A stretch of 38,320 bases of DNA from a virus (Duplodnaviria > Heunggongvirae > Uroviricota > Caudoviricetes), in the IMG/VR virus record IMGVR_UViG_3300028797_000098, positions 1-38,320 of that record, one strand, 5' to 3'. Both the position numbers and the translations under genes were made by a program. The notes beneath the pieces are model-generated. The model saw only the letters and a program-made list of their open reading frames with translations, did not search any database and was not told where the DNA came from. This document shows, in pieces, positions 1,151-23,692 of the stretch; the first letter of the stretch is position 1, and the number at the start of each line of letters is the position of its first letter.

Positions 1151-1153
1151 ACG

Positions 1154-1246
1154 AAAAAACCTACCGGAACTGGTCCTTCCGGTAGGATACAATGTACCTA
1201 AGTACATTTTAAACTCTTCTGCGATGGCAAGGACCAGTTGCCTTCG
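1154..1246 (-). ncRNA. Putative structured leader RNA of tnpB: three hairpins, outer two with complementary loops
   Basis: Minus strand: CGAAGGCAA-ctggtcc-TTGCCATCG, AATGTAC-ttag-GTACATT, CCTACCGGAA-ggaccag-TTCCGGTAGG, then T6. Loops CTGGTCC and GGACCAG are exact reverse complements. Confidence 0.6.
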
Positions 1247-1252
1247 TATATC

Positions 1253-1289
1253 AGTTTATATATGTAGCAAAAATTCCGAAAATAGTCAA
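1253..1289 (-). promoter_or_regulatory. Sigma70-like promoter (TTGACT-17-TACATA) directly followed by a TATAAACT motif, upstream of tnpB
   Basis: Minus strand reads TTGACT attttcggaatttttgc TACATA TATAAACT. Confidence 0.6.
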
Positions 1290-1376
1290 GCGGCTTTCAT
1301 CTCACCCACTAAAGATGGGTGAGTTTTCTCGCCGCTACATTATAAACTGTACCATGAAAGATTTTTACCGACTGGT

Positions 1377-2045
1377 GTGTTTATTATGATGGATATGTTT
1401 GAATCGCTTGAAAGTATGCTTCCGCTGTGCGAAATGGCGTCAGTGGACATGACAGGCAATGCTGGGACATTGGATGCATCTCACTACAAGGCATATGCCA
1501 AGAATCCAAGTGAACTCGACCAGAATACGCTGGCTGAACTTGCTGACATGGTTGACCGCGCCCATGATGCAAAGAACGTGATTGCTGCGCAACAGGCATC
1601 CGGGCGTGAACCGATGGCGACACCAAGGACGATTGACCAGTTGATGAATAGCATACTTGTCCTCTACATCACATGTGACGATGCGCCCGTGGCTGTTACG
1701 AATGTAGTGGACCCGTCAATGGAAGACTATCATGGATATGTGCCCATCAGGTTCTATTCATTGAAAACCGGGTATAACCTGGATGGCCGTCTGCAACAGT
1801 CTTTCTTCTCCATTGAGGAAGATTTTCGCTCATCCGGCGTAGCAAAGGAATTGTTCCTGCAACTGAATGTCAACGGTTCGCCGTGCTTCATCGTGGTTGA
1901 CCCGATGGATGCACCGACAGTGAAGAATGTGCAGGAAAGCGGATACAAGAAAGTGGGCCACATGAAAATAGATGGCTCGGGTAACGAAATGGAGCTGTGG
2001 GTATCCCCAGCAAAGGAAAAGGTAGCTTCTGATGAGCAAGATTAA
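1377..2045 (+). CDS. GNAT-fold acetyltransferase-like protein with an N-terminal extension (start may be 1386/1395)
   Basis: FSIEEDFRSSGVAKELF resembles GNAT motif A, followed by ...ESGYKKVG. A TATAAACT motif lies at 1341-1348. Confidence 0.55.
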   Translation: MFIMMDMFESLESMLPLCEMASVDMTGNAGTLDASHYKAYAKNPSELDQNTLAELADMVDRAHDAKNVIAAQQASGREPMATPRTIDQLMNSILVLYITCDDAPVAVTNVVDPSMEDYHGYVPIRFYSLKTGYNLDGRLQQSFFSIEEDFRSSGVAKELFLQLNVNGSPCFIVVDPMDAPTVKNVQESGYKKVGHMKIDGSGNEMELWVSPAKEKVASDEQD

Positions 2046-3672
2046 TAAGGTTCTCTATAATGTAGACCAAACTACCGGTACTAACGGTACTACCGCAGAT
2101 GAACGGAAACTGGCTCGAAAAAATATTGGTTTGGATGAAGTTGTTGGACATGCAGCGACTGCATCCGAATCTGGTATTGCTCCGCTTGATACGGGAGGTA
2201 AGATTCCTTCCAGATGTTTACCTTCACATGCACATGGTAATATTACTAATGATGGTAAAATTGGTAACACATCAGGGCTTCCTTTGGTGACAACGACCGA
2301 TGGTCTAGTTACTACGGGTGCATTTGGTACTGCTGCGGGTCAATTTGCAAGTGGTAACCATACACATGGATTTATTACTAATGATGGTAAGCTAGAGAAT
2401 CGATATGGAGAATTGGAACCGGTGCTTGTTGCTGAGGATGGCACTATTGGTCTCGGCTTATTTGGAAGCGCCGCTAACGCCGTTGCTCGGGGTAACCATG
2501 GCCATGGCAATATTGCCAAAGATGGCAAGGTGAGTGTCGCAATTGGGAATAATGAGGTTCCAAACTGCATATTAGTAACTCGTACTGAATCCTCTGGACA
2601 TGAGAATGACGTTGCATGTGGGCCGGCATTTGGAAACGATACTTCCAAATTTCTAAATCAAGCTGGTAAATGGGCTAATGTTGGAGTCGCAACAGATAGT
2701 TCTGTTGGCGGCATAATGCTAGGTTACACGTCAACTGGGAAAAATTATGCTGTGGAGCTTGATCATAATATGGCATATGTTAATGTGCCGTGGACTGAAT
2801 ATACCGCTGGCACCAACGTGAAGATTTCTAACCAGAACGCCATCAGTTCCCTTCATGGCCTGAAGTCTTACAGCCGTACACAGCCGACCGGCGGCTATGG
2901 CGACATGGTGAAAGACGATTTGATTCTCGGAGTCTATCACATTTCTCCGCCTACGATTGTGAACAATGACAAGAAAAACAACATAGTCTACGAATACAAG
3001 GTAACCGACATTACAAATGTGTCATATTTTGACATCGGCTACGCGATGACTCCGGATGCCGACGGCTTTGTTCCGAATGTCCATTTCGTAATCGACCTTA
3101 CTGGAGAAATTACAGACGATTCCGATCCAAGTATGATTAGATCACCGCATGACCATCTGACTCTCAGTGTGGGCCATGGCGATCCAAAAGCAATGGTAGC
3201 GAACTACTATGTACGCTACATCCCGATCTACATCGGTCACAAGTACTTGGTCGACTTCTACGGCAATGTAGCCCATGTGAACGTGCTGGGTGAGAACCGT
3301 GTACAAGACATTGCGCCGAACTGGGGCGATGTACAAGAATTCTTGAGCACCACCCCGAACACGACTCATCATAACATATCGTACAAGCTAGACAGTTATA
3401 CGGTCTACCACATGGACATTTATACGAACGGCCTCCAGGCGGAGAGCACGGATAAGTACCAGTATCGCGTAGCACTCGGTGTTTACGGCTCGGGTAACAT
3501 AAGGTACCTTACCGGATGGATCCGCCAAGACTCTGGCAAGGCCATACAGCCGCACCTTGACTTCAATAGCGATATTTTCAGATCGATGTTCATAGAGTTT
3601 GACCAGGCGAACTACCCGATGGCCACGCAGAGTGTAAACCTTATGATCATGGGAACAAAGGAGAGGATGTAA
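2032..3672 (+). CDS. Tail fibre / virion fibre-like protein
   Basis: Three HxHG(N/F)I(T/A)xDGK repeats (HAHGNITNDGK, HTHGFITNDGK, HGHGNIAKDGK) typical of metal-coordinated trimeric fibres; G/T/N-rich; beta-rich C-terminal region. Confidence 0.6.
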   Translation: MSKINKVLYNVDQTTGTNGTTADERKLARKNIGLDEVVGHAATASESGIAPLDTGGKIPSRCLPSHAHGNITNDGKIGNTSGLPLVTTTDGLVTTGAFGTAAGQFASGNHTHGFITNDGKLENRYGELEPVLVAEDGTIGLGLFGSAANAVARGNHGHGNIAKDGKVSVAIGNNEVPNCILVTRTESSGHENDVACGPAFGNDTSKFLNQAGKWANVGVATDSSVGGIMLGYTSTGKNYAVELDHNMAYVNVPWTEYTAGTNVKISNQNAISSLHGLKSYSRTQPTGGYGDMVKDDLILGVYHISPPTIVNNDKKNNIVYEYKVTDITNVSYFDIGYAMTPDADGFVPNVHFVIDLTGEITDDSDPSMIRSPHDHLTLSVGHGDPKAMVANYYVRYIPIYIGHKYLVDFYGNVAHVNVLGENRVQDIAPNWGDVQEFLSTTPNTTHHNISYKLDSYTVYHMDIYTNGLQAESTDKYQYRVALGVYGSGNIRYLTGWIRQDSGKAIQPHLDFNSDIFRSMFIEFDQANYPMATQSVNLMIMGTKERM

Positions 3673-3707
3673 TGGGAACTGTTGGAGAAATAACTTAAGG
3701 TTAATCT

Positions 3708-4031
3708 ATGGCATCTCAGGCAAAAGACATAAGGGGTTCGCTTATACTCACGCCTTCACAGGCGGAGTTCATGGGCATACTCCTTAAAATGATGAAAAAG
3801 GAATGCAAGCATGTTCAGGAAACCGGTATGATGCTAAAGCCGGGCCCAGGCAACATGTATTCCGATTTTGTCATTACAGTTAAATGCTCCCAGGACCGCC
3901 GTACATGCGAAGTGTACCGGAACAGAACCGGTACACTCATATTTGCAATGCTTAATGGCAAGGTTGTCGCTGCCGATTACGAAATCGATTTCGTTACGGA
4001 GCACATGAAGCGCAAGTTTAGCGCTCTATGA
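3708..4031 (+). CDS. Hypothetical protein
   Basis: 107-aa ORF with AAGG upstream; converges on the patatin gene with a 14-nt overlap. Confidence 0.6.
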   Translation: MASQAKDIRGSLILTPSQAEFMGILLKMMKKECKHVQETGMMLKPGPGNMYSDFVITVKCSQDRRTCEVYRNRTGTLIFAMLNGKVVAADYEIDFVTEHMKRKFSAL

Positions 4032-4881
4032 ACTTTTTCAGCTTGCCCTTGACACTTTCATAATATTTCTGCCAGATGTCGATGACCTCGTTGACGGTCT
4101 TGTCGTCCGTCTTGTCCATCTTAATCTTCTTGTTATGGGATGGCGATGCGCGGAACACGTTTTCCTCGCCAAGATGGGCGCATGCTTCATAGTAATTGGC
4201 CATGCCGCTTCTTGCAACCCATTCGTCTAGGATGTATTCAAGCCATCCGAGCTTGGACATGTTGCCGCAGGCTGTGTGCGGGGTGTCCATGCCGGTATTG
4301 AACGACAGAATCTTGAAATCTCTATGTCCTGCCTTGGTCAAGCCGGATTCAAGGGTTTCGATAGGGTCATTGGCCCACATGCCACCATCACAGTAGCTCT
4401 TGCCATCCTGCATAATTACGTCAAAATAGGTCGGCGCGGAGCAGCTTGTGAGTACCGCGAACCACTTTTCGGTATCCTTATCCCCAAGGTCCCAGACCTT
4501 TTCGACGCTCTTGCCGTTCATGAAGGTAGCCGGGATGTACACAGACTTTTTCCAGTCGCCTATCTTGCCCGGAAAGGTCTTTTGAAGGATCGTCTTGAGC
4601 TTGGAATTGTTATATGTCGGGCACTTGATGTCAAAAACCTTATATGCAGGGTACTTTTTGAAGATATTCTTCAAGTTTCCCTTGTACAGGTCGAAGATTT
4701 CGTGCGCCGACAGGCCTTGTGCAAGGCCTGCTGCGATAATCGAGCCTGTAGAGGTGCCTCCGTAGGCGAAACTCATGTCGCAGAGCTTCTTGCCGAAATC
4801 TTGTTCCATCCTGGTCATGAATGCAAGTGGACCGATACCGAGGGCACCGCCACCGGAAACGCTGATTGCTAGTCTTTTCAT
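4018..4881 (-). CDS. Patatin-like phospholipase
   Basis: SGGGALG oxyanion motif, GTSTG nucleophile (GxSxG) and DGG catalytic Asp (YCDGGMWANDP). Confidence 0.93.
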   Translation of the reverse strand: MKRLAISVSGGGALGIGPLAFMTRMEQDFGKKLCDMSFAYGGTSTGSIIAAGLAQGLSAHEIFDLYKGNLKNIFKKYPAYKVFDIKCPTYNNSKLKTILQKTFPGKIGDWKKSVYIPATFMNGKSVEKVWDLGDKDTEKWFAVLTSCSAPTYFDVIMQDGKSYCDGGMWANDPIETLESGLTKAGHRDFKILSFNTGMDTPHTACGNMSKLGWLEYILDEWVARSGMANYYEACAHLGEENVFRASPSHNKKIKMDKTDDKTVNEVIDIWQKYYESVKGKLKKFIER

Positions 4882-4976
4882 TGGAAAATCTCCTGTTTTC
4901 CAAAGCTTTAGCGGTTGGCCACGGTTTTTTAGCTTGCGATTGTATAAACTTTTCTTACATTTTCGTCAATTAAGTG

Positions 4977-5005
4977 TTGACAGAGTGTTGATAAGTTGTT
5001 ATATT
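4977..5005 (+). promoter_or_regulatory. Canonical sigma70-type promoter for the phage sigma gene
   Basis: TTGACA-17 nt-TATATT. Confidence 0.7.
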
Positions 5006-5034
5006 AAGGTTAACAATATACAAAGGGGTGTGTT

Positions 5035-5847
5035 TTGCCCGCAATTTCAATTGAACCAGGAGTGCAAGAGCTCTTCGCCGAGGTTGCCGGTTATGAAATT
5101 ATAGGCCAACGGGCGGAAAACGCCTGTTTCCAGACCTATCATACGAGCAAGAATGAGGGAGTGAGGGAAGCCGCCAAGGTCAAAATCATCAAATCGAACC
5201 TCAGGCTGGTGCTGAAGCTTGCAATGGACTATCACAATGTCACCGGATTGCCCATTACCGACTTTTATACCGAGGGCAAACTAGGACTCATGGAGTCGTT
5301 TTACAAATACGATTATCGTAAAGGCGTAAAATTCGGCTCATTTGCCATCTGGGAAGTCAGGCGCCATATGTCTATGGTTGTCCAGGGGCGCGATTTGGTC
5401 CATGTCCCCGTGCGTCAGCGCAAGCGCGTATTGAAGGCTATACGGGACGGCCTACCGATGGACATGAATTACGGGACGGAAGCCATGAATGCCATCCTGG
5501 GCCCGGATTCACTCGACATGCCAGTGGGCGAGGATGGTGAAAATTCCACGTTCCTGTTACACGATGTCATACCCGATGAATCTACTGATGCCAATCCGGA
5601 AAAGAACGCTATCATGGAAGACATGCGAGATGGCCTTGTTGCCGAAATGAAACGCGTCCTTACACCGATAGAGAACAAATTGTTGCGTTCCCTGTACGGA
5701 CTTGACGGAGATGGGAGTAGTTTTGAGGAAGAGGCGGCGAATACCGGCATGAGCAAGGACTGGATTCGCAAGATCAAAAACCAGGCAATAGAGAAGCTGA
5801 GGGACAGCAAGCGCCTCAATGTCCTCCGCGACTGCTATATGGAATAA
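5035..5847 (+). CDS. RNA polymerase sigma-70 family factor (RpoD/RpoH-like regions 2-4), TTG start
   Basis: Region 2: SNLRLVLKLA...GKLGLMESFYKYDYRKGVKFGSFAIW. Region 3: SLDMPVGED. Region 4 HTH: LTPIENKLLRSLYGL...MSKDWIRKIKNQAIEKLR. Confidence 0.92.
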   Translation: MPAISIEPGVQELFAEVAGYEIIGQRAENACFQTYHTSKNEGVREAAKVKIIKSNLRLVLKLAMDYHNVTGLPITDFYTEGKLGLMESFYKYDYRKGVKFGSFAIWEVRRHMSMVVQGRDLVHVPVRQRKRVLKAIRDGLPMDMNYGTEAMNAILGPDSLDMPVGEDGENSTFLLHDVIPDESTDANPEKNAIMEDMRDGLVAEMKRVLTPIENKLLRSLYGLDGDGSSFEEEAANTGMSKDWIRKIKNQAIEKLRDSKRLNVLRDCYME

Positions 5848-5853
5848 CTTAAT

Positions 5854-6822
5854 GTGGGCATCTGGTCCAAAATTGTCAACTTTTTCAAGTCGAAGCCGGA
5901 CGATGACGGCTCCGAGGAGCGCAGTATGTATAATGTAGATGACGGTCCTACCCTTATTTATAGTGACGAGCCCAACTTGTCGGATGCCGTGTACGATGCG
6001 AATAGCGGTCGCATGGTTGGCCACGCTTCCACTAGCGCAAGGGCGGACTTGGAAAGGGTCGCCAGGGCGAATGCGTCAATGATTGTCCCGGGGCAGGTCG
6101 TTAGGCAACGCAGGCCGGCACAAAGGCCGATGCAGCGCCCCGTGCAGCAACCGGTGCAGCAGCCTGTCCAGCAGGCCCAGCCGACACAGCCGGTCCAAGA
6201 GGCGGCACCCGTGGAGCAGCCGGTGCAGCAGGCCCCACAGCCGCAACCGCAACCCGTCTACCAGCAACCGGTGTATCAGCAGCCTATGTATCAGCAACCA
6301 GTATATCCACAACAGCAGTATTACCAGCAGCCACAATATTATCAACAGCCACAGTATTACCAGCAGCCGATGCCCCAGCAGCAACCACAGCCGCAGGGCG
6401 ATGATGAAATCAAGCTGGTGCAGGGTGAACGCATCGCAATCGCCCCGAACTTCCCGGCATACGAGATGATTGAGGTGAACGGCGTGTATCACTTGTACAT
6501 CGACCTTCCGGGTGTGAAGAAGAGTGAACTTAAAATGAACTTCTCCGGTGGAAGCCTGTATGTCAGCGGGCACCGTGAACTCATGTGCGAGAAGTACCGC
6601 CCGAAGGGAAAGGGCAAGGGAAACAAGGGCAAGAAGCCGCAGTACGAGGCACTTATCGGTGTCGGGCGCCACTTGCTCGGGGATTTCAGCTTCCCGTTCT
6701 ACTTCCCGAAGCCTGTAGACACTTCCCAGGATTCGTTCAAGGCAAACTTGGTCGATGGCATCCTTCATATCGAGATGAGGGTGGCTGGTGTGGACACTGG
6801 AATTTCAATTGGATTGGGGTAA
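5854..6822 (+). CDS. Small heat-shock protein (Hsp20/alpha-crystallin domain) with a long Q/P/Y-rich N-terminal region
   Basis: C-terminal YHLYIDLPGVKKSELKMNFSGGSLYVSGHRE...FSFPFYFPKPVD...ANLVDGILHIEM matches the Hsp20 pattern. Confidence 0.85.
   Translation: MGIWSKIVNFFKSKPDDDGSEERSMYNVDDGPTLIYSDEPNLSDAVYDANSGRMVGHASTSARADLERVARANASMIVPGQVVRQRRPAQRPMQRPVQQPVQQPVQQAQPTQPVQEAAPVEQPVQQAPQPQPQPVYQQPVYQQPMYQQPVYPQQQYYQQPQYYQQPQYYQQPMPQQQPQPQGDDEIKLVQGERIAIAPNFPAYEMIEVNGVYHLYIDLPGVKKSELKMNFSGGSLYVSGHRELMCEKYRPKGKGKGNKGKKPQYEALIGVGRHLLGDFSFPFYFPKPVDTSQDSFKANLVDGILHIEMRVAGVDTGISIGLG
6131..6390 (+). repeat. Imperfect coding tandem repeats (QQPV, YQQPV/M, YYQQPQ)
   Basis: Recurrent cagcagcc/tatcagcagcc/tattaccagcagcc units of 12-18 nt. 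Confidence 0.85.
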
Positions 6823-6825
6823 AGT

Positions 6826-7125
6826 ATGGTAAAGTTTGACCTTGTATTGACTGATGGCCGGATCCATGTCGATACCATCGATGATGCTGAAAGTACTCCG
6901 GGTTCATCCCGGCAATACACTCGGTTCAATGCCGAGTGCAAGCCGGAACTGAATCAGGTTCTTTCCAATCTGAGTGGTGCCAATTTGACTGATGCCCGGG
7001 TGGACGCGATTATATTTACGCTCGCAAAGCACAACTTCATGAAGAAAGAAGCCATTCACCTTATGGATGATGATGGCCACTTGACCAATCGTATCCGTGT
7101 ATTCATTGACAGCATAGAGCAGTAA
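6826..7125 (+). CDS. Hypothetical protein
   Basis: 99-aa ORF starting 3 nt after the sHSP stop and followed by a terminator. Confidence 0.7.
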   Translation: MVKFDLVLTDGRIHVDTIDDAESTPGSSRQYTRFNAECKPELNQVLSNLSGANLTDARVDAIIFTLAKHNFMKKEAIHLMDDDGHLTNRIRVFIDSIEQ

Positions 7126-7163
7126 TATGAACCGTGGTTCAACGACAGAAACTCAGAATGCAT

Positions 7164-7190
7164 AAAAGGCGACCGAATGGCCGCCTTTTT
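7164..7190. terminator. Bidirectional intrinsic terminator
   Basis: AAAAGGCG...CGCCTTTTT between convergent genes. Confidence 0.75.
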
Positions 7191-7208
7191 AATGCGTGAT
7201 TGTCTCCT

Positions 7209-7541
7209 TTAATGTTTCCCGCAGTTGCATCCTTTCTTTACTGCGCCAATAACTTTTCTGATGGGTTTGGCTACCTTGTAGACAGCCTTCAAGCCAGCCT
7301 TTCTGAATTTTTCCGGGAGGATGAACAGGTAGTCGCCGATTTCGGGAAAATCGGTCGCCATCTTGTCAACCGCTGCTGTGCCGGAATACGTTGCACCCTT
7401 TGCGTCGACGTACTTGAAATCGTGTGCGTTTTCGTCGGCCTTGTAGTATTCCGCACGGTCCTTAACCTTGGCTCTAATCATGTGCATGAAGTTCGTGCAC
7501 ACGGAGCAGGTAGAGTCGTATATAATTCTTGGAAGCGCCAT
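7209..7541 (-). CDS. DCC1-like (DUF393-type) thiol-disulfide oxidoreductase-like protein
   Basis: N-terminal IIYDSTCSVC (DxxCxxC motif after a hydrophobic strand); ~110 aa. Confidence 0.7.
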   Translation of the reverse strand: MALPRIIYDSTCSVCTNFMHMIRAKVKDRAEYYKADENAHDFKYVDAKGATYSGTAAVDKMATDFPEIGDYLFILPEKFRKAGLKAVYKVAKPIRKVIGAVKKGCNCGKH

Positions 7542-8515
7542 TAGTCACCTATCTTTACTTTGTATCCGCCCATTTGGGGAGCTGTGCCGAACGAGCCATC
7601 CGGGTTGATGATGACCACTTCGGTAGGCTGGGTCATTACATTGCAGCTTGGATCCTTGCCGGAACAGATGTCCTGATATGGCATGCCGAGAATTTCATCA
7701 AGGTTGTCCGAAATCCGGTCGAGCATGTTGCACTTGGCATCATTCTGGGCAACCTTCATCGGGTTGTCATCAATGGTGCTACCGTCAAATGGCATTGCCT
7801 GGTCATTGAAGCCGACAATATTTTGAACATCGTCAATGGATGCGTTGAGCATCGGCTGGATGTCGGTTGCGCGGAAGGTGAAAGTAGGCCATTCGCCGTC
7901 ACAGGAGGTAAGAAGTTCATTCGGATTGGAAGTCGGTTTTGCAGCAGTAACCATCTGGCCGTCAGCTTTCTTTACGACAAACAGTGCCGGGGTGTTTCCA
8001 CAGTGAACCACGTCGCCAAGATGGAAGCCGCCCTGCTGTGGGCAGCACTGGCCAGCGCATTCGAGCTGGTACATTCGCATGAAGTTGCGGCCCATGCCGC
8101 GTTCAACGCATTCGTCGAGGGACAGCTTGAGACCCATGCTTTCCTGGACCGGAGTTTCCGCGTTTTCTGTCGAATCTACGAATGTCTGCACGCCTTCCTT
8201 TAGCTTCTCGATGCCGTTGTTCATGTTGGACATTGCGTCTGTGCCCGGGTCTTCAAAGAGAGGACCCTTCTGCTTATCCGGGTATGTCGGGTTGCCGGAG
8301 CATTCATCGGGTTCAGGTTTCTGGCCAGGAGCCTTGCCAGTTACCTTGCTAGTTACCTTGGTAACAGTTGGCTTTGCATTGAACGGTGTTGAACTGTCGC
8401 CGTAATCGGCATATATCGCATCAATGTCTTCTTCCGCTTCCATCATTGGACGGGAGATTGGGGAGGCTTCAATTTGTCTCGTGATAGCAAGCAGTTGGTC
8501 AAGTTCATCGCACAT
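7541..8515 (-). CDS. Hypothetical acidic protein, possible internal head protein
   Basis: 324-aa ORF with AAGGA RBS and TATAAACT at 8550-8543; many hydrophobic-x-E motifs (MMEA, LFED, VQES, LDEC, QLEC). Confidence 0.6.
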   Translation of the reverse strand: MCDELDQLLAITRQIEASPISRPMMEAEEDIDAIYADYGDSSTPFNAKPTVTKVTSKVTGKAPGQKPEPDECSGNPTYPDKQKGPLFEDPGTDAMSNMNNGIEKLKEGVQTFVDSTENAETPVQESMGLKLSLDECVERGMGRNFMRMYQLECAGQCCPQQGGFHLGDVVHCGNTPALFVVKKADGQMVTAAKPTSNPNELLTSCDGEWPTFTFRATDIQPMLNASIDDVQNIVGFNDQAMPFDGSTIDDNPMKVAQNDAKCNMLDRISDNLDEILGMPYQDICSGKDPSCNVMTQPTEVVIINPDGSFGTAPQMGGYKVKIGD

Positions 8516-8545
8516 CGGGAATTCCTTTTCTTTAACAGTTACAGT

Positions 8546-10462
8546 TTATACTCTCGAAGCTACTGGTATACCCGGTACGGGCGGCTGTGGATAGGCGTAG
8601 TTCTGTGGCTGCTGTGGATAGTAACCTGGGTATTGATAGTTATAGTGTTGCTGATATGCCGGATGTTGCTGCATGTGATTATAACCGGGCGGATATGCCT
8701 GATATTGATGCTGCATATCCTGTCGGTAGCCTTGCGGCGGGCCATACTGGTATTGCTGTGGAACGCCTGAATAGACAGTGGCCTGAACCGGCTGTTGTTG
8801 CTGCTGCGACGGGCGCTGTACAGGCGGCAACATGCGCTGGTTGCCGGCAAGTTCCATCATGCCGCGCTGTTCCTGCGAAATTTGCGGGTTGTGGATTTGC
8901 TCTGCCGCGTTGCGCATGTCGGCAATCTGAGCAGCCGGTGCGAACACCGCCCTGATTACGTCGTCCCAAGAGATTTCTTCCATTTCACCCTGGAAGTACG
9001 GCGAGTAGGCGTGGTAGACGGCCCAGTACAAGCTCGTAACGTGGTCGTCATGGTTACCGCCGGAAGCACCCCAGGTGCTCTTGGTGGGTCGAGTGAACGA
9101 CATGAGCTCGTTGATTGTCTTCTCGTCATGGAGAATGAGGTAGTTCTTCTGGATGTAAGTCTTCAGCAGCATGACGGCCTGGTTCTTGGTAGTTCCAGTG
9201 GAGTACATGCCACGGAAGTAGCTATCGTAGTCAACGATATTCGGGTACTGCATTGCGGCAGTCATCGTCTGGTAGGCAAGCGAGCCGGATCCGCCATTAT
9301 ATTCGATTGTAAGTGCGGGGAAATTGTATTTCCGGAGTAGGGCAAATGACACTGCACAGAAGTCTTCTACGGTCACGCTGTTCGAGGACAGTGTGAGCAC
9401 CTGTTCCAGCTTGGTACTGGTCTTTGCATAGAGGATTTGGAGGACGTGGTAGTCCTGACGCATACCGTAGCCGGTATCCAGTGCGGCAATGTAGACTGAC
9501 TTGTCGAATTCCATCTGTTGCGGATTGAGCGGTCGCCGATAAACGCGGAGCTGGTATTCGTCCGGGATTCTCGGATGGGCCATCGGTTTGTCCGGATGCA
9601 GATGCTGCAAGGTGTGGTAGTCGATAAGGGTGACTGCGGAACCGATGAATTCGCATTCGTATTCCTGGCGGAATCTTTCTTCGCCACAGCGGAGTTTTTC
9701 GTCAATGCCCCACTGTTCGTCACGACCGGGCACTTCATTCCAGAGCACCGTGGACCTGACGTACTTCGCCTGCAATTCGTGTGCGGTTGCCGTAGATTCA
9801 TCGACCGCATCTTCCCACATTCGATAGAAGTGGTTCATGCCCGCCGGCGTTGACGTAATGATGACTCGCGTCTTCTTACCTGACGAGATAGTCGGGAACA
9901 CGGAAGCCATGAATTCATCGGCCATGCCCGGACGCAAGAACGCAAATTCGTCAAGGTACAGTAGATTCGGGGAGAAACCACGAATACCGTCCGATGATGA
10001 AGCCGCGATGATGATACGGCAGCCGTTGGCGAACTGGATGGACATCTTGTTCCACAGTTTTACGCCGGGCTGTAGCCAGTAGGGGAGGTTCAGGTAGGAT
10101 TCTCGCAGGAGCTGCAACTGTTCCTTAGCAAGCATGAGCTTGTTTGCCAGCATTGCGATGAGCTGGTCTTCGTGGAACATTGCGTACCAAAGGATAAATG
10201 CGCGGACAATGGTGGATTTACCCACCTGCCGGGACCATCGGTTGATGTTGAACCTGTATTTGAGGAAACGCCGAATTGCCTCGTCCTGGAACGGGTACGT
10301 CTTCATCAGCTGGGTGCCCTCGTCCTTTGTGTTGATGTAGACGTAGTGGCGGATGAAGTAAATAGGGTCCTTGGTGCAGCGCTCGATTTCTTGCAGCTGC
10401 CACATTTCGAGCTTCACAGACTCGCTTGCAGACCTTAGATTATGTATCCCGTTGAATGGCAT
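8546..10462 (-). CDS. terL: Terminase large subunit (T4 gp17-like) with a Q/Y/P-rich C-terminal tail
   Basis: ERCTKDPIYF, SRQVGKST (Walker A), LLYLDEFAF (Walker B), IITSTPAG, nuclease LDTGYG and HDDHVTSL. Start placed at ATG 10462 (MPFNGIHNLRSA), 10 nt after TATAAACT; the track's longer N-terminus overlaps a divergent gene. Confidence 0.96.
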   Translation of the reverse strand: MPFNGIHNLRSASESVKLEMWQLQEIERCTKDPIYFIRHYVYINTKDEGTQLMKTYPFQDEAIRRFLKYRFNINRWSRQVGKSTIVRAFILWYAMFHEDQLIAMLANKLMLAKEQLQLLRESYLNLPYWLQPGVKLWNKMSIQFANGCRIIIAASSSDGIRGFSPNLLYLDEFAFLRPGMADEFMASVFPTISSGKKTRVIITSTPAGMNHFYRMWEDAVDESTATAHELQAKYVRSTVLWNEVPGRDEQWGIDEKLRCGEERFRQEYECEFIGSAVTLIDYHTLQHLHPDKPMAHPRIPDEYQLRVYRRPLNPQQMEFDKSVYIAALDTGYGMRQDYHVLQILYAKTSTKLEQVLTLSSNSVTVEDFCAVSFALLRKYNFPALTIEYNGGSGSLAYQTMTAAMQYPNIVDYDSYFRGMYSTGTTKNQAVMLLKTYIQKNYLILHDEKTINELMSFTRPTKSTWGASGGNHDDHVTSLYWAVYHAYSPYFQGEMEEISWDDVIRAVFAPAAQIADMRNAAEQIHNPQISQEQRGMMELAGNQRMLPPVQRPSQQQQQPVQATVYSGVPQQYQYGPPQGYRQDMQHQYQAYPPGYNHMQQHPAYQQHYNYQYPGYYPQQPQNYAYPQPPVPGIPVASRV

Positions 10463-10472
10463 AGTACAAAGC

Positions 10473-10480
10473 AGTTTATA
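10473..10480 (-). promoter_or_regulatory. Putative late promoter TATAAACT
   Basis: Lies 10 nt before the terminase ATG; one base different from the T4 late consensus TATAAATA; recurs before other genes. Confidence 0.55.
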
Positions 10481-10558
10481 AGGCATTGATTTGTGGACGA
10501 TTATCGGGATTTTTGGATTTTGGACAGAAATTGGGAAATTTTTTGCTATATTTTTGAC

Positions 10559-11614
10559 ATGAAGTTTCTTGTGATTACTGCATTTTGTGACAAGGGTGAC
10601 CGCTATCGTCGAAGGAACCTGGAGGCGACACTTGAGAACAACATGAAATTGTTCCCGGAAGCTATTTTTTGCGTATCCGAGCAGAATCCGACTGGGTGGT
10701 TCGATACGCTTAATTTGGATCCGTCCAGGGTTCGCCATGTTACATTGAATATTGACGGCGGTTTTTGCAAGACTGCGCTGTTAAATGCGGCAATCGAAGC
10801 TGTCCCGGACACAGAAGCTATCGCAATGGTTGATGGCGATGTGTATCTTAACGAAAAGGTCGTTGACTATATACGCAACCACTGGAATGATGGTTCGCTG
10901 GTGTTCCCGTATTCAGAGGCAGTGTACTTGAAGGAAACTGATACCCGAATGCTGGTTAAAGGTATGCCGCTGCTTCCGGGTCCAAAGGACCACGGGGTAA
11001 ATATCGACCGTCAGACTGGTCTGTGCAATGTGTTTACACGGGATACGTGGAAACAAGTTGGCAAGTATGATGAAGAATTTGTAAACTGGGGTGCCGAGGA
11101 CGATGCTTTTCTTACAAAATGCAAGCGTCTGGTCGGGCCGATTGTGCGGAATAGAGAGCCGGGATGCGTGGCGTACCATCTGTTCCATCCGGCTGCTAAC
11201 ACACCTGAATATCTGAAAAGCAGTCCGCTGTACCTTGCTAACCGTGTAAGGCAGGCATGCGTAAGGCGCATGAGCGACGAAGACCTTAAACTGTACGTGT
11301 CCGGCAGGCGCACTTTGGCCGAGATGGTGGAGAAGTACAATGACATGGGTCGGCTGGCGGTTAGCCTGGATTGGCAATGCACTCCAAGGACTTCACTACA
11401 CATGGACACCACTATATACGATGTGGACCGTACCGGCAAAATGACCTTCGAAAAGGTGATGAAGGCTATTGAGGAAGAAGACAGCGCAGAATACTGCGTC
11501 ACTTTCATTGATGAAATTTTGTTGCAACTGCCTGATTTGACGCAGTTGCAGATAGATGAGATTGTGGGATTGCGGAAGCATTATGAGGAGTTAGCCAATG
11601 CAGTTCAGTCGTGA
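10559..11614 (+). CDS. GT-A fold glycosyltransferase (GT2/GT7-like)
   Basis: KTALLNAAIE, MVDGD (DxD) and GKYDEEFVNWGAEDDAF (galactosyltransferase C-terminal motif). The start at 10559 is 6 nt after TGCTATATT. Confidence 0.88.
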   Translation: MKFLVITAFCDKGDRYRRRNLEATLENNMKLFPEAIFCVSEQNPTGWFDTLNLDPSRVRHVTLNIDGGFCKTALLNAAIEAVPDTEAIAMVDGDVYLNEKVVDYIRNHWNDGSLVFPYSEAVYLKETDTRMLVKGMPLLPGPKDHGVNIDRQTGLCNVFTRDTWKQVGKYDEEFVNWGAEDDAFLTKCKRLVGPIVRNREPGCVAYHLFHPAANTPEYLKSSPLYLANRVRQACVRRMSDEDLKLYVSGRRTLAEMVEKYNDMGRLAVSLDWQCTPRTSLHMDTTIYDVDRTGKMTFEKVMKAIEEEDSAEYCVTFIDEILLQLPDLTQLQIDEIVGLRKHYEELANAVQS

Positions 11615-12338
11615 TTTTCTAGTACCTGACTGGCACAGTAAATTTAATGTTTTGGCGAGAATGTGCGCCATGTATGACCACCGTTCATGCTGGGCAAATG
11701 CGGAATGTAGGGAACCGGTTGCAGTACAGTGCGGTGATGGTAGAGTACTTGGACCGGATGGAATTGAGCATAAACCGCACATTTTGATATTGCATGACTG
11801 GGATGAAAAGTACGCTCCTATGGTAAACAGGGCTACCAAGATCATTACGTTTGGCAAGCTGGATGGCGCCCCGGACGGAGCTGTCGTACTTGACAGCTTC
11901 CCGCTTCCGGATTTGCCCGAGCACCTCATGCATCCGGATAACAATATCTTGATTGCCGGGCAATGCGCAGGCAATGAAACTCTTGATTTCGTGAATACCG
12001 TGCTGGATGGTCTTGACCATACGCTGTCGGTTACGATTGCCTTGTATGACAAGGAATCGTACAAGACCGAACGGATGATTTCTGGACTAGTTTATGGGGA
12101 GACATTGACAACTTTTGAGAAGGTGTCGTGGAAGAAACGCCAGTCATATTCAATGATTACCGCGCTTTATCTCACCGCAGGACAGGTGATTCACTGTGGG
12201 TCGGGAAAGCGCGGTTTCTTGCATGCATTGGCGGTGAAGGCGGCATCCCGTGGCTCCGGTCTGATAACCCGGAGAGGGGATAATGACTTCGAGCCGACGA
12301 CGATACATCAATTTTTGGATGTCATTGGTGGAAGGTAA
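11598..12338 (+). CDS. Hypothetical protein, possibly a degenerate GT-B-like fold
   Basis: 246-aa alpha/beta ORF overlapping the GT stop; only weak resemblance. Confidence 0.5.
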   Translation: MQFSRDFLVPDWHSKFNVLARMCAMYDHRSCWANAECREPVAVQCGDGRVLGPDGIEHKPHILILHDWDEKYAPMVNRATKIITFGKLDGAPDGAVVLDSFPLPDLPEHLMHPDNNILIAGQCAGNETLDFVNTVLDGLDHTLSVTIALYDKESYKTERMISGLVYGETLTTFEKVSWKKRQSYSMITALYLTAGQVIHCGSGKRGFLHALAVKAASRGSGLITRRGDNDFEPTTIHQFLDVIGGR

Positions 12339-12373
12339 AGAAGATTTTACAATTTTCACCAAACCCTACAGAA

Positions 12374-12421
12374 CCGCCATATCTAGTGTAAAAACGCCAG
12401 AAAATGTACAATATGCTGTAT
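12374..12421 (+). promoter_or_regulatory. Tandem NrdR-box-like operators upstream of nrdD
   Basis: CCGCCATATCTAGTGT (12374-12389) and GTACAATATGCTGTAT (12406-12421), starts 32 bp apart; both resemble acaCwAtATaTwGtgt. Confidence 0.6.
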
Positions 12422-12526
12422 TTATGTTCACTATGTGTCGGTTCGCGGAGGATATAAACACTACTTGCCTTATTACAAAGCGACTGAGGAATGGTCACCG
12501 TTGTAAGGTAAAAATGAGGAAAATGT

Positions 12527-15250
12527 ATGAGTAATGTAAGCGAATCTGCTGAACCTATTGCCGCACCGAAACTTGCCAAAGTGAACAAGCGTGACGGAAG
12601 ACCACAGACTTTTAATCCAAGCAAGATTGAACACGCGATGAAGACCGCGTTCTATGCTACCAAGACTTCTGTTAGTGACGAAGAACTTGATGAGGCGACC
12701 AACCGGGTTATTGAAGAAATCCAAAGTTACAACACCGCGTCGGTCTCTGCCGACAAGGTGGCCAATGCGGTGAAGAATGTTCTCCGCGAAAAGTGGCCCA
12801 AGGCATACGATGCCTATGTGATTTACCGTGCCAACCGTGACAAGGTTCTTGCGACCAAGAAGGCGATTATCAAGAACATGCCTCTTCTGAACACGGTGCG
12901 TGAAATTACAGATGACAAGTACACGTCATTGAACACGTCGAATATCCTCCGTGACAACGCCAATGAATGTGGCGCAACGCCGGCTGGCGCGTATGGCAAG
13001 ATTGCGTCTGAGACGAACAAGATGTACAACCTGTTGAATAACATCAACGAGAAGTATTCCCAGATGCATAAGGATGGCTACATGCACATCCATGACCTCA
13101 ACATGTACAACTTGACCTTCAACTGCCTCTTCGCTCCTATTGGCAAGCTGCTGTCCACTGGTTTCGATTCCGGCACGGGCTTCATTCGCCGTGCTCATTC
13201 TGTCCAGAGTGCTGCTGCGCTTACCGCAGTGATTTTCCAGCTTCAATCCAATCAGCAGTATGGCGGCATTGCATGTGATAACTTTGACTTTGACCTTGCC
13301 CCGTCAGTGGATGAAAGTTTCCGTACCCATCTCGGCGTTAGGCTAAACGATTATTACGAAGACACTGGTGATGAAAAGTTCAAGGGCTTTGCTGGTGATC
13401 CGGAAAAAGACGAAGATAAGGAACGCTGGCGCAAGCTTCTTTCCGATGTCACCATGAACAAGCCGATTTGCCATTACACCGACCGTTTCCCCAAGAAATG
13501 TCTTGAAAAGGCTATCAAGTACACTAACATTGAAACCCATCAGGCTATGGAAGCTCTTGTCCACAACCTGAACTCCTTGCAGAGCCGGTCCGGAAACCAG
13601 GTCCCATTCTCATCAATCAACTTTGGCCTCGATACGTCCAACTGCGGGCGAATGGTCAGCCACAACTTGATGCGTGCCCAGTACGAAGGCATGGGTGACG
13701 GCCTTACCCCGATTTTCCCGATCTTGATTTTCAAGCTCATGAAGGGCTATACCAAGTACGAGGGCGACCCGAACTACGACCTGTACAACCAGGCAATCGA
13801 ATGTCTCGCCCGCCGCTTCTACCCGAACTTTGTACGTGTTGACTCCTCCTTCAACCTCCCGTATGTCAAGTACGAATACAAGGAAGTCGAGGATGCAAAC
13901 CCGACGTTCAAGTACCGGGGTAGGAACGAAGATTTTGAATTCGGCTTCGGCGATTACAAGGCCGGCGAAACCACTGCGTTTGAATACGATGTGGGCAATG
14001 GCGACTACTGGGAAGTCGTGTCCAAGACGGGCGACAAGCTCAAAGTTCGCAAGATTATCCCGAACACCACCATTTCCACGATGGGCTGCCGTACCAGGGT
14101 CATCGGCAACATCAACGGACCCGAACAGACTACCGCCCGCGGTAACTTCGCGTTCCATACGCTCAACCTGCCCCGTATCGCTATCGAGGCTCACATCAAG
14201 AGCAAGAACGAGGAAACCCGTAAGCAGATCTTCTTCGAAAAGCTCGATGAGTTGCTTGAATGCGCCAAGGATAGCCTCCTCGACCGCTTCAACTTTATCT
14301 GTAATACAAAGACCTACGAGAACTTCCCGTTCACTATGCAGCAGGGTCTGTATCTGACCTCCGATGACAAGAAGCACGCGCTCACCGATTCCATTGCGGA
14401 AGTGATGAAGCAGTCTACCCTGTCCATCGGTTATATCGGCATTGCCGAAGTCATCACCCTCCTTACCGGTAAGACCTTCGGTATTGACCATGACATCGAT
14501 GACTTTGCACTCTCTATCGTGGAACATATCCGCGAGTTCTGCGATAAGACCCAGAAGGAAACGCATCTCAACTGGTCGTGCTTTGCAACTCCGGCAGAAG
14601 CCGTTGCTGGTCGTTTTGCTTCCATCGACAAGAACAAGTTCTGCAAGGAAATCATCGAGGAACCGACGGATGACGATGATATGATGACCGGTTGTGAAGG
14701 TCATTCGAACCCGAAGATGAGCGATAATGACTTTGTTACTGGATGTGAATGCACTTATCCGGATGCCCGTAAGAAGAAGGTTCGCCTGATCGGCGTTAAG
14801 GGTCTTGAAGATGTTGACCTCATGAAGATTTTCGGCAAGGGTTACTATACCAATAGCCATATGATGTATTTCTCTCTGGATACGACTCTTGAAAACAAGA
14901 TTAAGACTGAGGCGCCGTTCCACAAGATTACGAACGCTGGTCACATCTTCTACTACAAGCTTAATGGTGATTTAACTAAAAATGTGCCGGCGGTAAAGGC
15001 TGCTATAGATGCAATGTATGAAGGCGACCTTGGTTATTTTAGTTGTACTATGTCGTCGGATGATTGCATGAAGTGTGGATATCATGGCATAATTGATAAC
15101 GAATGTCCGAAGTGTGGCTGTAGGGATGAAGATATGTTTGTTCGTGTTCGCCGTATTACGGGTTATTTAACGGGATCGCCTAGAAAGACGATTTTGAAGT
15201 CCTGGAATACTGGCAAGCTTGCTGAATTGGCAGATCGCAAAAATATTTGA
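12527..15250 (+). CDS. nrdD: Anaerobic (class III) ribonucleoside-triphosphate reductase with ATP cone
   Basis: KVNKRDGRPQTFNPSKI (ATP cone), HIHDL, QSNQQYGG, QVPFSSINFG, TMGCRT, GNFAFHTLNLPR, ATPAEA, YYTNSH, CMKCG...CPKCG and the RRITGYL glycyl-radical loop. Confidence 0.98.
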   Translation: MSNVSESAEPIAAPKLAKVNKRDGRPQTFNPSKIEHAMKTAFYATKTSVSDEELDEATNRVIEEIQSYNTASVSADKVANAVKNVLREKWPKAYDAYVIYRANRDKVLATKKAIIKNMPLLNTVREITDDKYTSLNTSNILRDNANECGATPAGAYGKIASETNKMYNLLNNINEKYSQMHKDGYMHIHDLNMYNLTFNCLFAPIGKLLSTGFDSGTGFIRRAHSVQSAAALTAVIFQLQSNQQYGGIACDNFDFDLAPSVDESFRTHLGVRLNDYYEDTGDEKFKGFAGDPEKDEDKERWRKLLSDVTMNKPICHYTDRFPKKCLEKAIKYTNIETHQAMEALVHNLNSLQSRSGNQVPFSSINFGLDTSNCGRMVSHNLMRAQYEGMGDGLTPIFPILIFKLMKGYTKYEGDPNYDLYNQAIECLARRFYPNFVRVDSSFNLPYVKYEYKEVEDANPTFKYRGRNEDFEFGFGDYKAGETTAFEYDVGNGDYWEVVSKTGDKLKVRKIIPNTTISTMGCRTRVIGNINGPEQTTARGNFAFHTLNLPRIAIEAHIKSKNEETRKQIFFEKLDELLECAKDSLLDRFNFICNTKTYENFPFTMQQGLYLTSDDKKHALTDSIAEVMKQSTLSIGYIGIAEVITLLTGKTFGIDHDIDDFALSIVEHIREFCDKTQKETHLNWSCFATPAEAVAGRFASIDKNKFCKEIIEEPTDDDDMMTGCEGHSNPKMSDNDFVTGCECTYPDARKKKVRLIGVKGLEDVDLMKIFGKGYYTNSHMMYFSLDTTLENKIKTEAPFHKITNAGHIFYYKLNGDLTKNVPAVKAAIDAMYEGDLGYFSCTMSSDDCMKCGYHGIIDNECPKCGCRDEDMFVRVRRITGYLTGSPRKTILKSWNTGKLAELADRKNI

Positions 15251-15276
15251 CGGTCATGTTATAAACTCATTGCCGG

Positions 15277-15370
15277 CACATCGGATAATTGGCGTTCTTC
15301 GATGTGAGATGGGTTTTATAGGTGACCCGTGGTTGGATGAACGCCAATTTAGCCGACTGCGGGTCACTTT
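15277..15370 (+). ncRNA. Putative kissing-loop structured leader RNA before the endonuclease gene
   Basis: Stem 15277-15285/15298-15306; stems 15322-15330/15359-15367 and 15331-15335/15350-15354. Loop segments AATTGGCGTTC (15287-15297) and GAACGCCAATT (15339-15349) are exact complements. G-U pairs favour the + strand. Confidence 0.65.
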
Positions 15371-16483: not shown

Positions 16484-16994
16484 TCCGATGTCAATAGTCG
16501 ATGGGGAAGGCCTTCGGGTCTCACTCTTCGTCTCCGGTTGCCGCAACCACTGCAAGGGTTGCTTTAATCCAGAGACCTGGGACTTTTCCTATGGCAAGGA
16601 ATTCGACGCTATTGCCGAGAATGAGGTGCTCGAAGCATGCCGGCCATCCTATATTGCCGGACTGACTGTACTTGGTGGCGAACCGTTTGAGCCCGAGAAC
16701 CAGTGGGGGCTCTTGCCGTTCCTTTCCAAGTTCAAGGAAAAGTATCCTGACAAGACTCTGTGGATGTTTACCGGCTATGTGTTGGATAATGACCTGCTGA
16801 CTGGGCAGCGCCAGGATATCCATCTCGTAACGTCGAACATCCTCAAAACGGTGGATGTCTTGGTGGACGGCCCGTTCATCCTGGAACAGAGGGATATTTC
16901 ACTGAAATTCAGGGGTAGTTCGAATCAGCGGATTTGGACACGTGAGGAAATTCAGAAACTTCTCGACAGCATGCCTGCCGCACGAGGCTTGTGA
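16464..16994 (+). CDS. nrdG: Anaerobic RNR activating enzyme (radical SAM)
   Basis: MNYSKID...VDGEGLRVSLFVSGCRNHCKGCFNPETW (CxxxCxxC), LGGEPF, DVLVDGPF, FRGSSNQRI; start re-assigned to ATG 16464. Confidence 0.97.
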   Translation: MNYSKIDPMSIVDGEGLRVSLFVSGCRNHCKGCFNPETWDFSYGKEFDAIAENEVLEACRPSYIAGLTVLGGEPFEPENQWGLLPFLSKFKEKYPDKTLWMFTGYVLDNDLLTGQRQDIHLVTSNILKTVDVLVDGPFILEQRDISLKFRGSSNQRIWTREEIQKLLDSMPAARGL

Positions 16995-16998
16995 GTGT

Positions 16999-23401: not shown

Positions 23402-23692
23402 TCAACTACCCACGGGTATAAAGACCCGTGAGTTTGGGGTAACTCAGACTCATAGTTGATTAGACTCAGTGAAGCAGAGAAATCTGCTGAACTACGTTAG
23501 GAAGGTCATAACACCTACGGATGTACGGTCAAGTCTGTAGCTCTGTTGAATGTCATTAAACAGTCCTGATGGGTAGGGACAGTGTGGCGTTCATGACAAG
23601 CCTTCCTAACATTGTCGATGACCACCCACAGGGAGTAATCCCTGCATTACCTATTAAGTTAGGTTAAAAAACAACGAAAGGATAACGACTAG
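23381..23692 (+). ncRNA. IscB omegaRNA (HEARO-type scaffold from 23401; guide from the 5' flank)
   Basis: ATCAACTA (23401-23408) pairs with TAGTTGAT (23453-23460); hairpin CACGGGT-ataaag-ACCCGTG; conserved-looking AGACTCAG, CTACGTT, ACACCTACGGATG, GTAGCTCTG and AACATTGTCGA blocks. Confidence 0.9.

Follow-up and report, generated by a model that had tools for sequence, protein, structure and literature searches.

Two nuclease genes of unrelated kinds, a tnpB gene and a gene for a homing-type nuclease of the Pfam family DUF7487, lie within the first 38 kb of a linear virus record that spans 203 kb and has 48% G+C (IMG/VR record IMGVR_UViG_3300028797_000098; this whole 38,320-nt stretch is called the window below). 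A first-pass annotation of the sequence had proposed that both are preceded by the same layout, the promoter-like motif TATAAACT followed by a short RNA whose first and last hairpins carry complementary loops. This raises the question of whether such a leader is a real RNA element, whether it belongs to the nuclease genes, and what it may do to their expression. Here, we find that, as the annotation had claimed, a single RNA architecture precedes unrelated selfish nucleases. It is recurrent and selected, and sequence comparison shows strong selection on the loop-loop contact in the sense RNA. The leader probably throttles these nuclease genes, judging from its predicted fold and placement.

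Both leaders, that of tnpB (TnpB-A; leader e1, minus strand, 1260-1148) and that of the DUF7487 nuclease (leader e2, plus strand, 15260-15373), were found where the annotation had placed them and with the anatomy it described (Table 1), although several details needed correction. The 11-bp complementary run reported for both recurs in each as a self-match, but in e1 only 7 of the 11 positions are loop bases, while the outer 2 + 2 are A-U pairs of the stems. In e2, the loop cores AATTGGCGTTC (15287-15297) and GAACGCCAATT (15339-15349) are exact 11-nt complements, and a linker of 14 nt separates hairpin 1 from the last hairpin. The T-run before the ATG holds for e1 (T6), but e2 has only TTT, the first T of which is in a G-U pair, and 9-10 nt, rather than 6-9 nt, separate the motif from hairpin 1 (7 nt from the closing stem in e1). 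Moreover, the two leaders noted are both real, but they are not the only ones: when TATAAACT sites were searched for two hairpins whose loops are complementary, e1 and e2 came up again, together with a third leader, e3, outside the window at genome positions 66779-66891. Its loops are TTGCCCGTC and GACGGGCAA, its last stem has 18-19 bp, and 8 nt further on lies the ATG of a second TnpB (TnpB-B, 376 aa). One layout is shared by four sequence-unrelated families, namely e1, e2 (with relatives in L002 and L040; L numbers denote fetched loci), e3 and a fourth family, e4. The leader RNA is 95-105 nt long, its first hairpin stands at or near the predicted 5′ end, and its last hairpin is long, G+C-rich and terminator-like, with U-rich sequence after it that abuts or includes a start codon lacking a Shine-Dalgarno sequence.

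Such folds are rare by chance. RNAfold gave z scores of -3.6 and -4.1 for the e1 and e2 leaders, and none of 200 shuffles folded as well. A promoter-independent scan with stringent settings (last stem of at least 10 bp, loop-loop run of at least 9) returned three structures from the 203-kb genome, namely e2, e3 and an unrelated one close to the contig end, whereas 12 shuffled genomes gave one match in total. With looser settings (complementary run of 7, loops of up to 30 nt), about four chance matches per genome appeared, and therefore only stringent settings or comparative evidence were used. A pattern scan for e3, which specifies 14 bases and is unspecific, included only one known copy among the matches listed.

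The strongest support comes from covariation. For e1, TnpB homologues in IMG/VR and a pattern search with the hairpin-3 stem and a free loop, in IMG/VR and metagenomes, yielded 21 distinct leaders. These carry six loop pairs, all perfect Watson-Crick (CTGGTCC/GGACCAG, CTCGCAC/GTGCGAG, CTGGTAC/GTACCAG, CTAGCCC/GGGCTAG, CTGGACC/GGTCCAG and CTGGAAC/GTTCCAG), so that the seven-pair loop-loop helix is 100% paired; three of its pairs have changed, in every case on both sides and never on one alone. The hairpin 1 stem is likewise 100% paired, with one covarying pair and with G-U pairs in four sequences, and hairpin 2 shows changes on both sides in four of its seven pairs. The closing stem is paired in 76-83% of cells over the 21 homologues, with many G-U pairs, and transcription may begin only downstream of part of it. 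No upstream loop complement was found for eight unrelated hairpins that share the e1 hairpin-3 stem.

The other families behave in the same way. Seven e3 leaders hold six loop pairs, although the TnpB proteins behind them are 92-97% identical, and e2 and e4 add three further loop pairs. In L001, the loops of e2 are kept while the stems covary; L002-L004, with 41% protein identity and the leader at the same place after nrdD and the motif, have different loop letters (GTGGAACTC/GAGTTCCAC); and L040 carries a homologous e2-type leader with loops GCGGAACCTT/AAGGTTCCGC before a 50-aa open reading frame (ORF) and a TnpB paralogue. In that locus (253-405 and 419-1645), the small ORF, which is putative, encodes a hydrophobic product, and the paralogue has 408 aa. 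When 16 variants were compared in a matrix, the match between cognate loops was 7-11 nt long; between non-cognate loops its median was 3 and it never exceeded 7, except for two leaders sharing the same loops. Small in-frame or upstream ATGs in the e1, e3 and e4 leaders are not conserved among homologues. Taken together, relatives in the e1, e3 and e2 families keep the loop pairing with different letters, as the first annotation had anticipated for a genuine structure, and the leader is therefore a real RNA element.

The complementarity could instead act at the DNA level, as part of a transposon end or of a homing-site structure. Single-strand DNA hairpins do occur at the ends of IS200/IS605 elements, and every loop-loop pair is Watson-Crick without any G-U. 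However, the stems tell otherwise: they contain 3-9 G-U pairs, which work on the sense strand only, and the sense strand folds better than the antisense strand by 5.5-16.5 kcal/mol in 9 of 10 leaders (-41.1 vs -28.0 kcal/mol for e2), so the structure belongs to the sense RNA. Moreover, TnpB-B has a separate left-end hairpin upstream of its promoter, after TTAC, a similar hairpin stands at 1323-1301 near TnpB-A, and the same design precedes a protein-only nuclease. We thus consider a role in the DNA scarcely credible.

Table 1. Features of the e1 and e2 leaders, of the genes behind them and of TATAAACT sites close to an ATG (window positions unless marked as genome positions).
Feature	Position	Strand	Basis or remark
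Hairpin CTCACCCA/TGGGTGAG upstream of the e1 promoter	1301..1323	minus	analogous to the TnpB-B left-end hairpin
e1 -35 box, sigma-70-like, TTGACT	1284..1289	minus	17 nt upstream of TACATA (1266-1261), a weak -10 box here
e1 TATAAACT, phage promoter-like motif	1253..1260	minus	sequence
e1 closing stem, 5′ arm AUACGAA, pairs with 1155-1149 and covers the AUG	1243..1249	minus	minimum-free-energy (MFE) fold
e1 hairpin 1, GGCAA[CTGGTCC]TTGCC, 5-bp stem, 7-nt loop CUGGUCC (1237-1231)	1226..1242	minus	sequence and fold
e1 hairpin 2, 7 bp, 4-nt loop, spacer arm	1191..1208	minus	fold
e1 hairpin 3, CCTACCGGAA[GGACCAG]TTCCGGTAGG, 10-bp stem, 7-nt loop GGACCAG (1176-1170) complementary to loop 1	1160..1186	minus	fold
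e1 U6 (T6) tract 3′ of hairpin 3	1154..1159	minus	sequence
tnpB (TnpB-A), ATG 1150-1148, without Shine-Dalgarno	2..1150	minus	Pfam HTH_OrfB_IS605, OrfB_IS605, Cas12f1-like_TNB
e2 TATAAACT motif, 9 nt past the nrdD stop codon	15260..15267	plus	also in L001-L004, same place
e2 hairpin 1, 7-9 bp, loop core AAUUGGCGUUC at 15287-15297	15277..15306	plus	fold; stem covaries in L001 (C-G to U-A)
e2 last hairpin, 16-17 bp, four G-U pairs, loop core GAACGCCAAUU at 15339-15349, ends 2 nt before the AUG	15321..15368	plus	fold
Free-standing homing-type nuclease, DUF7487, 370 aa, ATG 15371, without Shine-Dalgarno	15371..16483	plus	Pfam and weak PHROG homing-endonuclease match
TATAAACT followed by ATG after 6-10 nt, without room for a Shine-Dalgarno	30262-30276 and 10480-10462; genome 116889 and 96723 (minus)		ORFs of 99, 638, 234 and 225 aa

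We then considered whose element the leader is. All three leaders of this genome precede mobile nucleases, and in about 670 kb of phage loci, from relatives and more distant phages, the ORF behind a stringent match, where there is one, always encodes a TnpB or a DUF7487 nuclease, or is a small ORF with a TnpB after it. The e2 case has an empty site for comparison. In the closest relative, L106, the nrdD stop codon overlaps the nrdG start (TAATG), and promoter, leader and nuclease ORF are missing together; in the window, it is the 3′ end of the nuclease gene that overlaps the nrdG start (16464). Compared with L106, nrdG is 99.6% identical (16462-17000) and nrdD 80% (14701-15226), with the switch exactly at the nuclease insertion. 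This drop in identity on the nrdD side fits the expectation around a homing endonuclease and may mark a recombination or co-conversion tract.

For TnpB-B, homology among six loci begins right after TTAC and continues with a left-end hairpin (CCCACGG/CCGTGGG), TATAAACT, the leader and tnpB; the right end, ...TATGTCAAC, lies downstream of the stop codon, with unrelated flanks beyond. By these boundaries, TnpB-B is a mobile IS200/IS605-type element that holds promoter and leader inside it, separate from the hairpin of the DNA end, and its organisation fits the IS200/IS605 left end as read from sequence (subterminal hairpin, then promoter and structured 5′ untranslated region (UTR) within the element). 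The TnpB-A element also has flanks that differ from phage to phage, and its protein is truncated by the contig start (383 aa here against 423 aa in relatives). Since the left end of IS200 carries a comparable hairpin/terminator (PMC4513863), the hairpin at 1323-1301 is by analogy the probable left-end hairpin and bidirectional terminator of TnpB-A. We also observed that the left end of TnpB-A always adjoins AGTTTATA, the reverse complement of TATAAACT (window 1341-1348, plus strand, and the same place in L066, L068, L080, L081, L093, L096 and L105, with unrelated flanks beyond); either the element carries this sequence as a promoter facing outward, or it prefers the sequence as a target. Because the leader is missing together with the nuclease at the empty site and lies inside the insertion sequence in TnpB-B, we read it as the nuclease's own control region and not as a captured resident RNA; promoter and leader travel with the nuclease. 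The module is portable as well. In L105, e1 is kept up to ATGATA and a different protein follows, an exact ORF swap. BLASTP of this protein against the TnpBs was not significant, and it resembles the TnpB superfamily by language-model features only.

The position of the promoter determines how much of the fold enters the RNA. The window has 8 copies of TATAAACT where 0.8 would be expected, and the genome has 18, of which 17 are followed by a long same-strand ORF starting at most 105 nt downstream. Four of these 17 ORFs, among them the one for TerL (the large terminase subunit), begin 6-10 nt past the motif, and the transcription start is therefore placed about 6-8 nt downstream of it. Accordingly, the predicted transcript holds the whole fold, as the annotation had stated. 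The four sites also suggest that the phage, which encodes an IF3 homologue, may use leaderless mRNAs. PHROG annotation of the other TATAAACT-driven genes was uninformative on the label 'late', and only TerL ties the motif to that class. That the motif is part of the design is true to the extent that it precedes e1, e2 and e3, but it is not obligatory. At the place of the -35 and -10 boxes of e1, the relatives L043, L044 and L068 have TTGAC(A/G)-17-TATATT, a consensus sigma-70 promoter, which in one e1 subclade overlaps TATAAGCT. Related e1 copies with a consensus sigma-70 promoter have either TATAAGCT or no motif; TATAAACT is therefore not essential.

What would a fold in this position do? Our favoured explanation, to which we give about an even chance, is that each leader is the 5′ control region of its nuclease gene, combining a promoter-proximal terminator with a block of the start codon, both locked by the loop-loop helix. 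Transcription from the promoter would at once produce the leader RNA, in which loop 1 pairs with the loop of the last hairpin through 7-11 Watson-Crick pairs (a kissing contact or pseudoknot), and this helix would lock the leader into a compact fold. The majority of transcripts would stop at the U-rich tract and give a short RNA; in those that read through, the start codon would be occluded and poorly translated. TnpB or the homing nuclease would then be made only at a low level, or only when a factor or a late condition lets polymerase and ribosomes pass.

Several kinds of evidence bear on this proposal. Hairpin 3 of e1 is the first-listed terminator-like site in 19 kb, having the most stem pairs and G-C pairs (10 bp with 6 G-C pairs, then U6), and five T of the tract after it are invariant in 21 of 21 homologues, including L085, where a Shine-Dalgarno spacer follows. 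None of the three nuclease AUGs has a Shine-Dalgarno upstream, whereas other motif-driven genes have one. Either just 2-8 nt lie between the last hairpin and the AUG, or the closing stem covers the AUG, and the unpaired probability around the AUG is 0.30-0.40 in the leaders against about 0.55 for most other TATAAACT genes. Given the terminator listing, the invariant U5, the absent Shine-Dalgarno and the low accessibility of the AUG, we therefore read the leaders as promoter-proximal gates. The tract after the last stem is U6 in e1, U5 in L002 and U4 in e4, while e2 and e3 have only U3 and U-rich sequence; on sequence, a G+C-rich stem with a U tract, as intrinsic terminators have, is thus clear for e1 and weak for the other families.

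Several observations weigh against such a gate. The difference in AUG accessibility is modest and overlaps two ordinary genes. The U tracts of e2 and e3 are short or interrupted, and the terminator loops of these two leaders, at 13-21 nt, are atypical for intrinsic terminators. A third TnpB of this genome has neither the motif nor the leader, and its upstream region is AT-rich; this TnpB-like gene lies on the minus strand at genome 156064-157348 (L156), and a G+C-rich hairpin-like stretch (GGGCGGTCGCAAGCTCACGCCC...) was seen just before it. In relatives, the other nucleases inserted between nrdD and nrdG have no leader of this kind, with only chance-level matches or plain terminators there, and the same is true upstream of more distant DUF7487 homologues (L005-L037). 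In L085, e1 precedes a 56-aa ORF with its own Shine-Dalgarno, and a consensus sigma-70 promoter lies upstream. Contigs of public metatranscriptome runs are sparse, and none spans either leader. Finally, by analogy, the loop-loop contact could equally delay folding of the terminator and so cause read-through, as proposed for the guanidine-IV riboswitch (PMC11611296).

That precedent is one of two points in favour of the reverse assignment, in which the loop-loop pairing is an antiterminator or activator that captures the emerging terminator loop, slows the terminator or the occluding hairpin, and is modulated by a protein, a ligand or a competing RNA. The other comes from L002-L004, where loop 3 has a second complement of 8 nt, the start region AUGGAACUC, with which loop 1 could compete. 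In these loci (2920-3002), one lineage only, loop 3 reads GAGTTCCA and complements the start region of the nuclease ORF, ATGGAACTC; loop 1 therefore mimics the start region. However, this match is a single observation, and the pairing uses the loop of the terminator hairpin itself rather than a competing hairpin, so both can coexist. In e1, the 11-nt pairing would open 2 bp at the loop end of both hairpin stems, yet as a kiss it is compatible with them; the hairpins are strongly favoured in the MFE fold, and no other competing (antiterminator) structure was found in this leader. Moreover, the loops vary freely, which leaves no conserved ligand pocket, and a helix of 7-11 Watson-Crick pairs needs no ligand. 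Taken together, an antiterminating role seems quite unlikely to us.

The fold might also be a processing or stability signal, in which the stacked hairpin-kiss-hairpin or the U-rich tract is cut by a host ribonuclease to leave a leaderless mRNA near the AUG, or in which the 5′ end is protected from decay. The apparent use of leaderless mRNAs at the four TATAAACT sites would suit this, as would nuclease genes without a Shine-Dalgarno whose AUG lies 2-22 nt past the fold, and a hairpin 1 that starts at the predicted +1 to +4. However, the distance from fold to AUG is variable, and the e1 stem alone is too short for RNase III. We regard this alternative as very doubtful.

A further explanation makes the terminated leader the product, namely a stable small RNA that pairs in trans with nascent leaders of the same kind or dimerises, providing element-specific feedback or immunity with the loop letters as a private address. 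Comparable cases are the P4 CI RNA, the P1/P7 c4 RNA and the multicopy inhibition of IS10. A promoter followed by a 5′ hairpin and a terminator is indeed the anatomy of a small-RNA gene, and the loops of each variant match only their own partner. Two TnpB-B copies in one phage contig (L160, L041) have different loop pairs, and the TnpB-B leaders diverge far more than their proteins, but different loops could also come from drift and compensation. The 5′ UTR of IS200 is processed into a regulatory small RNA (PMC5435999). However, the covariation is equally explained by pairing within one molecule, and a second target site was not found, as the 11-mer occurs only at the two loops themselves in three relatives. 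A 14-nt match of e1 hairpin 1 at genome 164397, inside a minus-strand ORF, was treated as chance, because three relatives with other loops have the loop 11-mer nowhere but in the leader. We therefore hold a trans-acting product to be fairly unlikely. Its more specific form, in which a leader RNA kisses only nascent leaders of its own kind (loop 1 with loop 3′, loop 3 with loop 1′), senses copy number or a co-infecting relative and shuts off or licenses the nuclease, is unlikely. The first-pass annotation had offered as its alternative that mobile nucleases captured small, possibly multimerising phage RNAs. This idea is not supported, yet the evidence on it is mixed: the evidence for an own control region argues against capture, while e1 before the L105 protein and before the 56-aa ORF of L085 runs counter to that evidence.

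We also considered whether the leaders are the omega-RNAs of TnpB, and rejected this, since they lie 5′ of the ORF, whereas the omega-RNA is formed by the 3′ end of tnpB, overlaps the right end and has its guide in the flank. Between leader and TnpB 3′ region or right end, no complementarity of at least 9 nt was found beyond single chance matches in two loci.

Regarding the second nuclease, the PD-(D/E)XK assignment in the first annotation agrees with the modelled structure. The predicted catalytic residues P275-D276 and E285-x-K287 are invariant in 20 homologues, and the model of the C-terminal domain has a predicted local distance difference test score (pLDDT) above 90. A Foldseek search gave weak matches (E of about 0.3-2), many of them known PD-(D/E)XK nucleases (TnsA, XisH, Bax1, Vsr, RecU and I-Bth0305I). 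The C-terminal domain of the DUF7487 protein is thus predicted to be PD-(D/E)XK-like, with D...(D/E)xK on an alpha-beta core.

The remaining genes of the window include TnpB at the contig start (2-1150, minus strand), a sigma factor, TerL, NrdD (12527-15250), the DUF7487 protein, NrdG, the IF3 homologue, and a HEARO RNA followed by IscB. The HEARO (IscB omega-RNA) match is full-length, scores 137 bits and lies at 23401-23629, with an IscB ORF directly after it (RRXRR and HNH, 419 aa; window 23401-24952); the phage therefore carries an IscB besides three TnpBs. Elsewhere in the genome, at 91916 and 93954 (plus) and 98289 (minus), the AAACT of the motif is the 5′ arm of a single hairpin ending in AGTTT(TT), before non-nuclease genes. 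As this terminator overlaps the promoter, RNA from the promoter would be without the hairpin arm, a T4-like arrangement. A long ORF starts at an ATG a few nt past the hairpin at 98289, whereas at 91916 and 93954 the ATG near the hairpin opens no long ORF, and the long ORF begins 53 and 60-72 nt past the motif, respectively. One ORF of 651 aa (91977-93932, L280), for which no annotation was found, contains an in-frame TATAAACT at 92894 with a Shine-Dalgarno and an ATG, which would give a nested product of 333 aa, and a paralogous gene of 336 aa likewise stands behind a motif (98289, minus). Between a tRNA gene and a minus-strand ORF, the stretch at genome 202139-202269 (L162:2640-2770) holds two interleaved complementary pairs, CGTTCCCCGTGCG/CGCACGGGGAACG and CATGACCGCA/TGCGGTCATG, and this A-B-A′-B′ order suggests a possible pseudoknot; no Rfam match was found for it.

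In a search of Rfam 15, whose families include IS605-orfB motifs, HEARO and riboswitches, the HEARO RNA was the only match in the window at gathering score, and the leaders gave none up to an E value of 5 (window 1-1500) or of 1 (L155, L040 and L002). Full-text literature searches found no description of this leader architecture. The principle that RNA structure or terminators restrain selfish nucleases is known; the kissing-loop architecture matched no Rfam family and was found in no paper. TnpB and homing endonucleases are ancestors or raw material of genome-editing nucleases, and little is known of the natural control of their expression. The leader is a compact RNA module with strong comparative support, existing in at least four sequence-unrelated versions of one architecture that are carried along by mobile nucleases in giant phages. 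If it is indeed a terminator/translation gate with a programmable loop-loop lock, it would be a natural sequence-orthogonal regulatory part, and the known pattern of tightly restrained selfish nucleases would extend from T4 and IS200 to TnpB elements. Several versions stand behind consensus sigma-70 promoters, so the mechanism is testable in E. coli without the uncultured host.

Known systems share parts of this design. In the P4 CI RNA (seqA/seqB/seqC) and the P1/P7 c4 RNA, complementary boxes lie in one leader, differ among phages yet stay matched, and act by premature termination or translation block. Those RNAs are processed, act in trans on two target boxes and control immunity genes, whereas no processing or second target was found here in a target search in three relatives. 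In the Q-released PR′-6S RNA-tR′ unit of lambda, a terminator about 100-200 nt after the promoter yields a short RNA until antitermination. It resembles our leaders in the order of promoter and terminator and differs in serving a whole late operon, through a DNA-bound antiterminator and without loop-loop pairing; no Q-like factor was identified here. The PeSL cassettes of T4-like phages place a terminator stem-loop before an early promoter and are conserved in sequence, without kissing loops (PMC2839356, PMC4122927). Like the leaders, they are short modules of promoter and hairpin at cassette boundaries with modular gene swaps, for which the ORF swap behind e1 in L105 may be compared. The guanidine-IV (mepA) riboswitch has two leader hairpins with kissing loops coupled to an intrinsic terminator, and there the kiss is ligand-dependent and made by conserved loop nucleotides, and the hairpin it stabilises is a competitor of the terminator (PMC11611296). 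In contrast to guanidine-II/IV, the loops described here differ completely between families and vary at three of seven positions in e1, and the kiss uses the terminator loop itself.

Parallels are also found among selfish elements. Expression of the IS200 transposase is limited by RNA structure in the 5′ UTR (PMC4513863). IS200 belongs to the same transposon superfamily and shows the same order of end hairpin/terminator, weak promoter, repressive 5′ UTR and ORF, and its 5′ UTR doubles as a small RNA; however, its gene is tnpA rather than tnpB, its repression works through one long stem-loop and an antisense RNA, and no intramolecular loop-loop pairing is described. Homing endonuclease genes of the T4 family (I-TevI, I-TevII, I-TevIII, segB and Aeh1 mobE) likewise combine a phage promoter with a stable RNA structure just upstream of the nuclease ORF that limits expression, and some also have terminators that lower transcript levels (PMC2988022). 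In these, a single hairpin hides the Shine-Dalgarno, and a late promoter inside the hairpin lets late transcripts escape (PMC2988022). Here, 4-10 nt separate the end of the motif from hairpin 1 in e1, e2, e3, e4 and L002, and only the closing stem of e1 may be truncated in the transcript. In contrast to the T4 genes, therefore, the leaders have no Shine-Dalgarno to hide, a promoter that stands before the whole fold, a terminator-like last hairpin and a covarying loop-loop helix.

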